Assembly (NCBI GenBank): GCA_951406725.2
Contig: OX597818.1
Location: 64,914,001-64,978,000 of the forward strand
DNA length: 64,000 nt
Reading direction: 5' to 3'
From: Octopus vulgaris
Lineage: Eukaryota
This document shows positions 11,055-57,690 of the stretch, in pieces. Below the pieces are notes generated by a model. The model was not told where the DNA came from. It worked only from the letters and a program-made list of their open reading frames with translations, and made no database searches. Both the position numbers and the translations under genes were made by a program. Every line of letters begins with the position of its first letter. Position 1 is the first letter of the stretch.

Positions 11055-11257
11055 CATTATGTCAGAAGAATGTTATAAATTTTTTTTCATACAATGACAT
11101 AGTTTTTGAAGAAATGACCGGTTTCGCGTTCAGCTTTTCAAATTTCTTACATATATATTTTTTAACCTTTTAAAACAAGCCTTCTGTAGTTTTTTTCACT
11201 TTTTACTATTTTCTATATATTCAACCACGTGCTTTCAACACACCAACTTTCTCACCT
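11055..11257 (-). mobile_element. Short Penelope-pLTR-like repeat carrying a hammerhead-like motif
   Basis: cattatgtcagaagaatgttataaatt...gaagaaat.accggtttc recurs at 29242-29331. The motif is at 11111-11146 and the repeat abuts (TA)n. Confidence 0.65.
11111..11146 (-). ncRNA. Minimal type I hammerhead ribozyme-like motif, U3-A8 variant
   Basis: GAAAU UUGAAAA GC-UGAAC-GC GAAA C-CG-GUC AUUUC: 5-bp stem I, palindromic stem III (ACCGGU) and a GUC cleavage triplet. Confidence 0.65.
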
Positions 11258-11465
11258 ATATATATATATATATATATATATATATATATATATATATATA
11301 TATATACACGATGGGCTTCTTTCAGTTTCCGTCTAAAAATCTACCCACAAGTCTTTGGCCGGCCCGAGGCTATAGTAGAAGACACTTGCCTAAGTTGCCA
11401 AAGCAATGTGACTGAACACCGAACTGTGTAGTTGGGAAGCATGCTTCTTCCTACACAGTCACTCG

Positions 11466-11880
11466 TCTTTTGATCTTTCGTCTTTTCTCTATTTCAGTCA
11501 TTAGATTGCGGTCGTGACTGAGCGCCACCTCTAAGATTCGTTAGTCGAATAAATCGACCCCACTATTATAGTCTTTTATTCTCGATAATTATACAATCGG
11601 GGTTTAGTGTTTAATTGCTAACGCTTTCGGAGACGTAAACACACAAACATCGGTAGTCAAGCGGTGGTGAGGATAAACATAATGACGTACAAACACACAC
11701 GCACATACACACACACATATGACGGGCTTCTTTCAGTTTCCCGCTACCAACTCCACTAACAAGGTTTTGGTCTGCCTGAGGGTTTCTGTAGAAGCCATTT
11801 GCCTAAAGTGCTATGCAGAGGTTCTAGACCCAGTATTATGTGGCTGGGAAACAAACTTCTTACGATGCAACCACACTGCT
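11466..11880 (-). mobile_element. Decayed SINE family C
   Basis: Contains tttcagtcatt, aatcgacccc, gacgggcttctttcagtttcc and the reverse complement of the tRNA-like head. Confidence 0.75.
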
Positions 11881-14800
11881 CTTACAGTCTACTTTAATTC
11901 CATAATTACTTTAATTTCCATAAGATATTAATTACAGCGTGATTGTTAAAACTAATCCTAAACGAGAAGTATTTTTGAAAGTCATAAATTATAAACAAAT
12001 TCAAAGGCACAAAAATTGGTTTTATAATTCTCAGTGTTTTCGCCATTTTCATCAATGGAATGTCGCAAGTTCCCATTTGTGTAATTGTCAGCCGCCTCCA
12101 CTAATTTTCCCATTCCCAATCGTTAATTAATCACATTTTATCTAATAACATTTACACTTGGAATAAAACCATGCTACCACAAATCGTTTACACCAACGCA
12201 TTAGAAAATTTATTAAGAACAGATAACAACTTTTGAACATATTACAAACCATAATCTTAATCCTGACATACAAACAAAATATATTCATCTTGTTTTTCAT
12301 CTGTTGACTCCATGGCCGGCTCCAAGATTTTTATGGAATTTGCGAAAAGTGTTATGACTAACATTGCATTCTTAGAAACTTTATAAGATAATAGTGTGAT
12401 GCGATATCTCCAACCCACTAGAATTCTGTTCCAGAGGGGCACCAAAATAATAGTTATAACAGGATATAATTTATTTCCAAACCTTTTCTAAGCATTTAGT
12501 AAAGTTACTCCGTCATATTTTTGCTGATACCGTTCCAAGCAAGCGTTACCAATTGAGGTTCGATGTTACTGAGAAACCTTCCGAGATACAAGTAAAAACA
12601 TTAAGGATGGATTCCTTTGCAAGGAAAAACTTGAAACAACATGAGATAACATTTGTTTGGTTCAAATTGGAAATGGAAAATGATCAAGAATGATTCACTC
12701 GTTCATTGATCTATTGGAATTTTTGATCATCACGGCAAGAAAATCTTTTTCGTTTTCGGCTGATTTTCTCTAGATTACATTTAATCTCATGCTGTTTTTT
12801 TTATGTTTTGTTTATTTCTTTAGTGAATTCAGAGATTACAACGTTCAAATGAGAAGATTTATGTTCATAATTCTCGTAGAGTGTTTTGAACGGTCGCAAA
12901 AGCTCCTCTAAATTATTCTATTTTACATATCACATGACAAAAATATAGCCAAACTAATCCATCAATATTTTATACATTCTCCGTCATTGTATATTACCAG
13001 AACATATGAACATCCTACATTTACTTCACATAATTCCGTGTAAATTTCTGCCATGCAACTTAGGCGCGTATTACCTTTGTCTGAAAATGTACTATTCTGT
13101 ATTGGAATAGCTGGACTTCGTCTAACTTGAATAATTCAAAGAGAACTTTGAATGACATTATGCATTGAAGTTTGTTTCATTTGCTAAGCCATAGTTGGTA
13201 ACTATTTTCTATTTATATTGGCATTCATATTGTTTGCAAATAATCTCACCTTTGACTAAATTTCTGTGTATTCTGGTGGGAATTTCTTTCTATTCATTCA
13301 CATAAAGACTCTGCCTGGTAAATTTAATCGTTTATCGGAGACATATCACAAACATGTTGCTGGCATATAACGCAAAGTAATTTTATTTCATCTGAAATGC
13401 AAAAGTTCCACTTGTCTGGAATCAGATTTCCATAACGCATGGCAAGAATAATGCTCTGACTACAAATTCTGTTTGCTGATAACAAAGTGTTGAAATAGTC
13501 AGTGAGCTCGGCAATCGAGTTCAATAATATAGTCCCATCGTAAAATATTTATCGGTGAATAGACACTTACACGTCGTCATTTCCTTTCGAAATACATATT
13601 CAAATAGACAGAATTTCTCTTACATAACCGAGAGAGCAGCATTAGGCTCATCCTCGCATATTGAGGAAAATGTTATTCTTATCATCGCCTGTAACAGAAC
13701 ATTATTATCAAAATAATGAGATCTCATCTCCCTTGGTCGATTTTGTTTAATTACTTATACTTTCCACGTTCAAATGAAACTTATTTTGCTGTGTTGTTTC
13801 CACCTCGAGTAACAAAACATGTTTCGAAACTAAATCTTCAATCTGTAACTTTTGAATCAGATATGACAATTTATTCTCTATGAATTTTTTTTTTCTTTAT
13901 CCGAATGAATCCAGAAACCAGTTTCTCTGGGGACTTTAGCACCGCTGTAAACAAATACGTGCTTTATTGTGCAACAAAAACGTGTGCGTTTCACACATAT
14001 GTAAATAAAATCCTTTATTGAAGAAAAGCTTTCAACTACACTTTTGCAGCAACCAATCTTATAAATAAACTCTGTTTCCTTTTGTTACGACACTGATTTC
14101 ACAAGATGACATTCGATGATAAGGTATTTACATAGGTCCTCATGTATATGAGAGTGTTTGTTAGATTATTTTCCCAGAAAAATGTTTTTCCAAATCAGAA
14201 TTGTTAATAACTGTCTTGGAATAAAAAGATTCACTTCTCGATTTACTTTTTCCCTCTAAAACCACTCGCGGCAAATAGTATTCCTTTAAATTATTCACAT
14301 TAACTTTACCAGAATCAGGAAAACACAAAATATGTTCTTTCTTTTCTTAATAGCTTCTACTTGAGAAATAGCTGCTGCATTATTCGAACTCATTATAGAG
14401 ATATTTTCTATCATTGAACTTTTGCACAAAACCATAACCACGACGCTGCCAATCTCAATATATTCCTTGTCACTAAATTGCCCTAATGCACATTATGAAC
14501 GGCATTCGTAATATTCTCAAACAGGTGGGTGGAATAATTAATTTGTAGAATGTTTCTCGCCTTACAGAGAATTAAATTATTTCTTAATGACTTAAACGAC
14601 CTTTCGGCATCAGAAAATTTTTTTCCAATTATAATTATCAAAAATAATTTTATTATACCAAATAACACATTGACATTAGTAAATTATAATTCGATATTTC
14701 TTCACGTTTTAAGACATTATTTTCGATATTTCTGAAGAAATCACCAAAATCGTCATGACCATTACTAAGGCTTGTTTGTTTTTTAAAAAATTATATCGGA

Positions 14801-57019: not shown

Positions 57020-57270
57020 GCCTGCCTCACCGGAACAACATTGCTGCGCACAAATACTGTTCTTTGCCACGCAAGCCACACTACTGGGCCATCCTAGTTC
57101 TGTTTGAGTTGTAATGCTCGTTTTTGTAGATTTGTCTCTCTTCTGCTTCCATACATGCCATCCCTCACATGGTATTCGATACGATGCTAACTTGGGAGGT
57201 TTGGCATAGAGAACAGAATGCTTCTCATGCAAGTCATTGATAGGTCCAAAGGAGTAGTACGACCGTTAGA
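57020..57270 (-). pseudogene. Possible highly decayed RTE-clade LINE fragment
   Basis: Minus frames give CMRSIL and TQTELGWPSSVACVAKNSICAQQCCSGE, resembling CLRSIL...QLRWAGHV.RM...RIP.Q.L.GE. Confidence 0.45.
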
Positions 57271-57506
57271 ATTTTGTACCAGCGACGTCAAATAAGTTGA
57301 TACATCAAGATCGTGCGCAACTTTGAGCTACTTCGGAGTGTCCAGCTCCCAATCTTTCGTCAGGTAATTCTTTAACTTAGCTGGCTTCCACCACCAAATA
57401 TAGAGAGCATATATATGTGTGCGTGCGTATATGCATATATATATATATATATGTATTTATATATAATTCTGTTTATATATATATATATATATATATTTAT
57501 ATATAT

Positions 57507-57690
57507 AACGGGAAGCTTTATGAAAATAAACAAAAGACGAAGGCAGGTGGAATACAAACAAACAATTGTATTAGTATGGCGCTCAGGAATATAAATAAAA
57601 CAAGTCTTTTACGTTTCGAGTTTCGAGCCTACGCTCTTCAACAGAAAGATACACAGAAAAGAAACACGGAGAGAAACAAAGAGAGAAAAA
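57507..57690 (-). mobile_element. Short Penelope-pLTR-like repeat with a hammerhead-like motif (57605-57649; 7-bp TCGAAAC duplication)
   Basis: Near-identical reverse complement of 16425-16580; abuts (TA)n. Confidence 0.75.

Follow-up and report, generated by a model that had tools for sequence, protein, structure and literature searches.

The window analysed here, a 64,000-nt stretch of the Octopus vulgaris genome (contig OX597818.1, positions 64,914,001 to 64,978,000), contains fifteen hammerhead-like motifs, which are very probably minimal type I hammerhead folds in the pLTRs of many families of Penelope-like elements (PLEs); the short units that carry them would have arisen by reverse transcription of RNA ends only, into AT-rich microsatellites. 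Judged by their sequences, the motifs are real hammerhead folds for which weak self-cleavage is predicted. The phenomenon is known, the genome is new, and the variants are notable.

Twelve main and two decayed sites were reported in a first-pass annotation, and all 14 parse in the order stem I, core, stem II, GAAA, stem III, UH, and stem I' at every coordinate it gave (each being the first base of the motif or, on the minus strand, its lowest coordinate). A fifteenth motif (20508-20549, +), absent from that annotation, lies just behind a GIY-YIG remnant at 20119. Nine repeat families (A-I) account for the 12 main sites, and their description as minimal type I hammerheads with a self-complementary stem III is borne out. 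Three of the 12 (11111, 29296, and 30098) pass a strict descriptor; those at 45724 and 18804 keep the core and have damaged stems, those at 16445, 57605, 44979, and 19835 carry family-wide core variants, and the copies at 26889 (U16.1 lost), 39290, and 45401 (G8 to A in both) are broken.

Family B is present as a subfamily copy at 11053-11148 (-) with a U3-A8 core, a 2-bp stem II, a palindromic stem III, and a 7-bp stem I (motif 11109-11148), and as a 3' end at 29175-29362 (-) with an intact U3-A8 hammerhead (29294-29332). Two family C 3' ends have an A6U core, one at 16427-16587 (+; motif 16445-16482) terminating in (TA)n and the other at 57502-57724 (-; motif 57605-57649) with an extra 7-nt duplication, and a decayed copy of the C/D lineage lies at 17096-17253 (-; motif 17170-17207). 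The family D 3' end at 44953-45106 (+; motif 44979-45013) combines a U4C core with a U-U mismatch in stem I, that of family G at 39017-39406 (+; motif 39290-39376) is the first of the two G8 mutants, and that of family I at 45692-45841 (+; motif 45724-45812) has a U-U at the base of stem II. The fifteenth motif, with a U3-A8 core, represents a further family (K) and follows a broken PLE GIY-YIG end (20117-20435, +) by about 70 nt on the same strand.

PLE GIY-YIG/RT coding sequence is found within 1.5 kb upstream, on the same strand, at 16 of 25 family B, 15 of 25 family G, and 3 of 30 family C loci, and after extension also in two of four long copies of D and, weakly, one of two of I; in family K the arrangement is visible within the window itself. 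The tblastn queries for B and G were taken from those families, so their counts speak for linkage, not identity. The upstream pieces encode RT and EN in B, C, and D and EN in G and K, the piece in I being weak. Their signatures are YIDD, a CxxxxCxxC linker, and a GIY-YIG motif with two cysteines; the linker precedes a C-terminal GIY-YIG in C and D and is present in the translation of B, and the two-cysteine motif is absent from the stretch of G that was examined. Pfam matches to GIY-YIG and RVT_1 have E-values of 0.001-0.007, under the gathering cut-offs, with no Pfam match for G; neighbours in a protein atlas (at 0.91-0.97) carry GIY-YIG, HTH_animal, and RVT_1, and the RT piece of family C matched nothing in the PDB. 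One locus (L241) is a partial tandem with two GIY-YIG regions, and no intact full-length autonomous copy was recovered. Since PLE coding lies upstream on the same strand, we read the short units of B, C, D, G, K, and weakly I as 5'-truncated copies of autonomous elements. The tie to Penelope-like elements proposed in the first-pass annotation is thereby upheld, and its description of the units as non-autonomous seems, among the families that could be assigned, to fit A and E only.

Both protein remnants named in that annotation exist. The GIY-YIG piece at 20119 (+) has its own hammerhead, visible also in four relatives (L389-L392). The RT-thumb/GIY-YIG piece at 27855-28740 (-) contains stops; no hammerhead lies within about 950 nt downstream in four of four relatives, and no link to any motif in the window was found. 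Assignment of the 20119 remnant to family E, as its N-terminal (Naiad-type) endonuclease, was rejected, because the E homology ends at 20069 and the remnant is followed by a hammerhead of its own.

The tertiary 3-8 pair is Watson-Crick in all 11 families (A-K), as C-G in eight, U-A in two, and G-C in one (J), a pattern indicative of selection for the ribozyme fold; at pair 2.1-1.1, each of the four Watson-Crick combinations occurs among the same families. Stem III is self-complementary, in its commonest or unmutated form, in 10 of the 11 (family E has a 4-bp hairpin), the AACGUU palindrome being that of family A and of the 16445 motif, and the copy at 45724 parses with a longer stem III. CpG decay disrupts this self-complementarity in many A and I copies, and minimum free energy cofolding predicts a stem III dimer for three of seven window motifs. 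Among the parsed copies, which make up part of the 25-30 fetched from each family, the canonical core is commonest in A (23/23), F (15/17), G (13/15), H (19/22), and I (14/15), and U3-A8 is universal in B (20/20). Non-canonical cores characterise D, with C4 in 25/25, and E, with CCGAnGA in 18 of 20 cores. Some such core variants may, reportedly, already be listed by Lünse et al. (RNA Biol., 2017).

The cores of the most abundant lineages (A6U and U4C) are expected to be weak, and it is a real possibility, at somewhat under an even chance, that the hammerheads of the large young lineages C, D, and E are catalytically dead, with the fold acting as a protein-binding or RT-positioning signal or as a hitch-hiker. 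This concerns catalysis only and is compatible with the motifs being PLE ends. Of 14,734 C-lineage matches 100 were listed, of which 96 have U6, with all four bases present at N7 (the family C copies were fetched by a U6 motif, and the figure of 96 is from a search unbiased at position 6); among the 100 matches listed for the sister pattern, 69 have C4; and family D has a U-U beside the cut site, yet 27 of its 41 listed matches are 100% identical. Hammerhead mutants are also reported to have left insertion unimpaired in vitro (Frangieh 2024, PMC11167929). However, the C, D, and E subfamilies otherwise preserve the core as well as the stems, selection on a catalytic tertiary pair is evident from G3-C8 and U3-A8 swaps elsewhere among the families, and, in the account of Perreault (2011), U4C is active enough to support viroid infectivity and A6C is weakly active.

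Two further observations concern the C and D lineages. The family D copy in the window has 146 nt identical to 26 other copies among the matches listed, and contigs from four runs presumed to be RNA, uninformative about ends and strand, cover its motif; these contigs lend no support to a 3' splice site that would follow a pyrimidine tract within the C/D core, an idea that stays speculative. Family C copies were found by pattern search, a DNA search having returned the window copy only, probably through skipping of very common words.

No upstream PLE ORF was reached for families A, E, F, and H. Family A is, from its layout, a SINE-like element composed of a tRNA-like head, (AAT)n, and a hammerhead unit. 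The window holds a copy that is without a head and lies between (AAT)n tracts (18755-18906, +; motif 18804-18851), a unit at 26808-26970 (-; motif 26881-26926) linked via (AAT)n to a head with Pol III A- and B-box-like sequences at 27227-27307 (-), and an element at 51532-51802 (+) with a head (51532-51604), (AAT)n, a decayed hammerhead unit (51659-51802; motif 51703-51745), and a short inverted 5' piece in front. Of 13 tRNA-like heads in a 1.0 Mb genome sample, nine are followed by a same-strand A unit within 400 nt, and 13 of 30 fetched loci have a head within 250 nt; the boxes were read by eye against the consensus, and ARAGORN at a lowered threshold gave noise. The family has 23 copies per Mb, or about 64,000 genome-wide by extrapolation, and no partner PLE was found for it. 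Family E (19674-20069, -; motif 19835-19910) combines U4C with an A-A mismatch at the stem II base. In family F (29991-30457, +) an inverted tail (29991-30085) precedes a hammerhead whose loop II contains an expanded (TA)n (30098-30287), and in family H (45223-45604, +) an inverted tail (45223-45297) precedes the unit (45372-45604; motif 45401-45464). An adjacent inverted piece is present at 17 of 25 family H loci, together with two 3' ends about 85 nt apart that reflect an optional tail, and inverted pieces or optional tails are seen in A, B, E, F, and J too.

These families bear on the earlier inference that all units are dedicated non-autonomous elements, or retrozymes, spreading via self-cleaved circular RNAs, which we consider improbable. 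It would suit family E, an ORF-less unit of about 490 nt repeated head-to-tail with a same-strand period of 485-508 nt, in which two upstream partial copies (L083 and L089, too few for a pile-up) begin 6-12 nt past the cut site, and it would suit the tRNA-like head of A and the fixed 5' end of H, whose copies all begin within 30 nt of each other; family J has a fixed 5' end as well. However, in five or six families the 5' ends vary and the sequence continues upstream into PLE coding DNA, copies are dispersed singles or inverted pairs without tandem arrays, and no pile-up of 5' ends at the cut site is present in the unbiased 1.0 Mb sample. Within E, the upstream stretches of 13 of 25 loci contain no second complete motif; one of them, in L103, contains a partial motif, and this copy reads through the upstream cut site. 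Families A and E are likely non-autonomous passengers of the same PLE enzymes.

The origin of the units as PLE ends draws on their variable 5' ends, adjacent inverted 5' pieces, optional 3' tails, and 3' ends at (TA)n. By analogy with the PLE literature, the GIY-YIG endonuclease would nick AT-rich DNA, and reverse transcription would begin at an internal position some 40-220 nt past the hammerhead and in most cases end early; Frangieh (2024) describes cutting of AT-rich DNA, an internal start for the RT, and a hammerhead that is assisted by protein and dispensable for insertion. Copies that span the cut site would derive from uncut or re-ligated RNA. For the ribozymes themselves the prediction is weak cleavage only, in dimers formed via the self-complementary stem III and perhaps with the aid of protein, and insertion probably does not depend on cleavage.

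The strict descriptor finds three sites in the window, where 100 local dinucleotide shuffles average 0.07, and six against 0.49 when one core deviation is allowed (one, at 28153, lying outside the families); in the unbiased 1.0 Mb sample there are 20 sites against 0.6, with a maximum of 3 in 30 shuffles and none in the reversed control. Although Rfam (E<=1) finds no hammerhead family in the window, only microsatellite-driven miRNA noise, and most main sites fail the strict descriptor, chance matching in AT-rich repeats has a negligible probability and is refuted by this enrichment of more than 30-fold, by genome-wide families whose reversed-pattern controls were zero, and by the compensatory pairs. 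The sample extrapolates to about 54,000 strict motifs per genome. Core-spanning copies of the nine families number 53 in 1.0 Mb, or one per 19 kb, and motif density in the window is about four times that of the sample, such that the first-pass estimate of one motif per 5 kb holds in the window but not genome-wide. The association with microsatellites that it proposed is confirmed: (TA)n or (AAT)n lies within 150 nt of 14 of 15 motifs, the exception being 19835, compared to 28% of random positions.

Minimal hammerheads (min-HHRs) in metazoan PLE pLTRs, including solo motifs from truncated PLEs and U3-A8 forms, were described by Cervera and de la Peña (2014, PMC4209133), with the molluscs Lottia and Crassostrea in the supplement. 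The octopus motifs agree with that description in being type I with an extra base after A9, G10.1-C11.1 in most families, a short stem I, a palindromic stem III, and U3-A8 covariation, and in forming many families per genome of mostly solo truncated-PLE copies. They differ in number, that study giving 2,000-9,000 per genome with a different descriptor, in having family-wide A6U, U4C, and G3-C8 cores, which are not described in the available part of that paper, and, in some families, in a long loop II (46-91 nt) and in 1-3 kb of low-complexity sequence that separates the ORF from the hammerhead. The linkers of B, C, and D and the 3' ends at (TA)n resemble Neptune/Nematis-type PLEs, which have a (TA)n bias and a linker of the form CX2-5CxxC (Craig et al. 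2021, PMC8557442), and family G departs from these in the two-cysteine motif missing from its examined stretch. Family A recalls Schistosoma Sm-alpha/Sj-alpha (PMC6765202) in joining a Pol III-type promoter and a hammerhead in a short non-coding retroposon; Sm-alpha is often tandem, whereas family A is dispersed, its hammerhead is of the PLE-type minimal form, (AAT)n lies inside the element, and the head is part of its inverted 5' pieces; the classical schistosome hammerheads are canonical (PMC4209133). Family E is like animal non-LTR retrozymes (PMC7229834; bioRxiv 10.64898/2026.07.22.740005) in that a type I hammerhead sits in a head-to-tail unit devoid of ORFs and plausibly derived from a PLE, and unlike them in its length, in being seen as partial dimers only, and in its variant core.

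Ribozyme-like motifs of this kind may number on the order of 100,000 genome-wide, missed by Rfam, and many short repeats adjoining (TA)n are probably mislabelled PLE ends. The PLE hammerhead is conserved, yet it cuts poorly in vitro and is dispensable for insertion in the one reconstituted system. In this genome, very young, high-copy families coexist whose cores are canonical, compensated (U3-A8, G3-C8), or to all appearances crippled (A6U, U4C), and cleavage rate could therefore be compared directly with transposition success. At close to even odds, we suggest that this genome amounts to a natural saturation-mutagenesis library for the hammerhead core, in which PLE lineages numbering tens of thousands of copies flourish with A6U, U4C, or natural G3-C8 cores, possibly through rescue or replacement of catalysis by the PLE protein, and that family A rides a Penelope enzyme through a captured hammerhead-bearing pLTR in a SINE-PLE partnership. 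A tRNA-headed element with a PLE end, if true, would extend SINE-type parasitism to Penelope enzymes.

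A type I hammerhead parse was obtained at all 12 main sites proposed by the first-pass annotation and at both decayed sites (near 17175 and 51703), and an additional, fifteenth motif lies at 20508–20549. Three sites (11111, 29296 and 30098) are fully intact, two (18804 and 45724) retain the core but have damaged stems, four (16445, 57605, 44979 and 19835) carry family-wide core variants, and three (26889, 39290 and 45401) are broken. A strict descriptor was used that demands stems I (4 bp or longer) and II, a CUGANGA core or the U3-A8 variant of it, GAAA, UH, and a stem III that is palindromic or forms a hairpin. 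It recovers 3 sites in the window versus 0.07 per shuffle, and 6 versus 0.49 when one core deviation is permitted (100 shuffles each). Microsatellites are abundant in the window, and the association proposed with them holds, as (TA)n or (AAT)n occurs no more than 150 nt away from 14 of the 15 motifs versus 28% of random positions. An Rfam search of the window detected none of these hammerheads. Beside the 16445 element, at 16667–16900, there is a near-perfect inverted repeat together with a short direct repeat.

The main sites fall into nine repeat families: A (18804, 26889 and 51703), B (11111 and 29296), C (16445 and 57605), D (44979), E (19835), F (30098), G (39290), H (45401) and I (45724). 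Among the 25–30 best or first genomic matches fetched per family, the core read by commonest letters is canonical in five families (A, F, G, H and I); B has U3-A8, C has A6U, and D and E have U4C. Because the families themselves have intact motifs, the broken window copies are regarded as their decayed members. Exact pattern matches were counted across the genome (2.80 Gb, 227 contigs), with all reversed-pattern controls giving 0, and base proportions were counted by hand among the first 100 matches listed per pattern, all on a single contig (C1). The family A pattern has 2,972 matches, with C3-G8 in 92 of the 100 listed; the C-lineage pattern has 14,734, with U6 in 96 of the 100 listed and all four bases at N7; and a sister pattern with A6 has 14,430, with C4 in 69 of the 100 listed, where part of the U4 may be due to CpG decay. 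Sequence identity marks family D as very young: of 41 listed hits, 27 (the window copy among them) are 100% identical over 146 nt, and flanks differ among the 14 loci visible.

An unbiased sample of 50 blocks of 20 kb spread across contigs (1.0 Mb) contains 20 strict hits versus 0.6 in shuffles (30 shuffles, maximum 3; reversed 0), and 48 relaxed hits versus 7.3; the strict count extrapolates to ~54,000 strict motifs genome-wide. The density of roughly one motif per 5 kb described for the window is real but local: the window, from which the families were chosen, is ~4-fold denser than the sample, where the 53 core-spanning copies of its nine families amount to only one per 19 kb (~150,000 genome-wide). 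About 10 further hammerhead families, none in the window, are present among the 48 relaxed hits (loci L269–L368); in several of them loop II is long and the palindromic stem III is longer.

The suggestion that the motifs mark non-autonomous units stands for only some families. With queries translated from the window remnants and from loci of families B and G, same-strand PLE-type coding sequence was found within 1.5 kb upstream of the hammerhead at 16 of 25 B, 15 of 25 G and 3 of 30 C loci, and, where the longest copies were extended, ~2.9 kb upstream in two of four D copies; one of two I copies gave a weak match (E 1e-4) 1.7 kb upstream. The extent of homology 5′ of the hammerhead differs between copies. 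These upstream stretches carry YIDD, a CxxxxCxxC linker and a GIY-YIG motif with two cysteines; Pfam GIY-YIG or RVT_1 matches occur in 4 of 9 locus stretches, below gathering cut-offs, and atlas neighbours bear these domains. A U3-A8 motif of its own lies 3′ of the putative Penelope-type remnant at 20119; the motif is also visible in 4/4 relatives (two decayed; none passes the strict descriptor). For the 27855 remnant, none was found within about 950 nt downstream in 4/4 relatives. A 5′-splice-site-like sequence sits just 3′ of the hammerhead in 4/4 relatives of the 20508–20560 segment (family K, loci L389–L392), and H and F tails hold similar sequences, which would be consistent with PLE introns. 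Low-complexity CT-/CA-rich stretches separate ORF and hammerhead in C (1.1 kb) and D (2.9 kb; loci L237–L244), so that these elements would themselves spread microsatellite-like DNA.

For A and E the non-autonomous reading remains likely. Family E is an ORF-less unit repeated head-to-tail with a period of 485–508 nt, and upstream of the family A unit there is a tRNA-like head that holds A- and B-box-like sequence. In the 1.0-Mb sample 9 of 13 such heads are within 400 nt of a same-strand A unit, and the head is present at 9 of 23 A pieces. Inverted 5′ pieces contain both head and unit, and therefore the two likely formed one RNA; it is less likely that the head belongs to a separate SINE whose (AAT)n tail received an A insertion. 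No autonomous partner of A was found. Three extended copies of F share 1.2–1.5 kb upstream, in which no ORF was reached. All 25 H copies begin within 30 nt of one another, an inverted piece adjoins 17 of them, and the 3′ end is found at two positions ~85 nt apart; 14 of 15 H pieces in the unbiased sample are without any hammerhead.

The window also contains a LINE with open frames at 32704–35979 and 35816–37102 (minus strand), in which a 428-aa frame that matches Myb/SANT-like and, weakly, CCCH comes before a 1091-aa frame with endonuclease and RVT_1 (E 7e-30); a decayed inverted piece is at 573–1013. A dispersed ~185–240-nt repeat (7281–8533, with a 184-nt tandem duplication at 8162–8529; 23457–23693; 27449–27690; 44256–44489) looks like a tRNA-derived SINE, and a second dispersed repeat is present at 17241–18280 (where 521 nt are directly duplicated at 17241/17763), 38621–39025, 53157–53547 and 5145–5269.

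Family J, found through the 1.0-Mb sample and absent from the window, has a G3-C8 core; a pattern that leaves positions 3 and 8 free has 4,726 matches, with G3-C8 in 96 of the 100 listed. Its 5′ ends cluster ~20 nt upstream of stem I (loci L369–L388), at a site that is initiator-like or 3′-splice-site-like, with a branch-point-like motif in long copies. Across 11 families (A–K), tabulated by eye without tree correction, the tertiary 3-8 pair is C-G in eight, U-A in two and G-C in one, each of the four Watson-Crick forms occurs at pair 2.1-1.1, and 10 families have a self-complementary stem III. Without selection on the fold, this pairing pattern is difficult to account for.

The anatomy and linkage of the elements are seen directly in the loci. 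As to mechanism, a PLE protein would nick AT-rich DNA, reverse transcription would start internally, downstream of the hammerhead, and mostly halt early or invert, so that short ends bearing the hammerhead would be left at microsatellites. (TA)n follows 12 of 20 C, 7 of 10 D and 14 of 15 H pieces of the unbiased sample versus 8% at random, and none of 23 A pieces. By analogy with the Anolis PLE (Frangieh 2024), H and J copies may run from the internal reverse transcription start as far as the site where transcription begins. The cut site lies within copies, and the 1.0-Mb sample shows no pile-up of 5′ ends at it; therefore the templates were uncut or re-ligated. This resembles the Anolis PLE, whose hammerhead is described as cut only with protein, dispensable for insertion and without RNA ends at the site (PMC11167929). 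Hammerhead activity is predicted to be low and dimer-dependent, and MFE cofolding gives a stem-III dimer for 3 of 7 motifs.

Solo minimal hammerheads from truncated PLEs, thousands per metazoan genome, in which an additional base follows A9, stem III is palindromic and U3-A8 occurs, are among the features described by Cervera and de la Peña 2014 (PMC4209133), and Perreault 2011 includes treatment of U3-A8, A6C, U4C and U10.1-U11.1. For G3-C8 or A6U hammerheads the accessible literature text yielded only a remark on an engineered G3-C8 (PMC3884650) and a twister paper, and Lünse 2017 may contain some variants; for octopus or cephalopod hammerheads it yielded Craig 2021 and a squid genome paper, which notes 235 Rfam hammerheads. 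Penelope families with recent activity are listed in a 2026 repeat annotation of Octopus vulgaris, which has neither 'ribozyme' nor 'hammerhead' in the accessible main text, and nothing direct on a PLE-dependent tRNA SINE was found in accessible literature text. Schistosoma Sm-alpha is, among the descriptions accessible, the nearest known counterpart of family A. The phenomenon is real and is mostly the known PLE hammerhead phenomenon, to which the octopus elements add scale, high-copy core variants (A6U, U4C and a natural G3-C8), the tRNA-headed passenger A and the ORF-less unit E.
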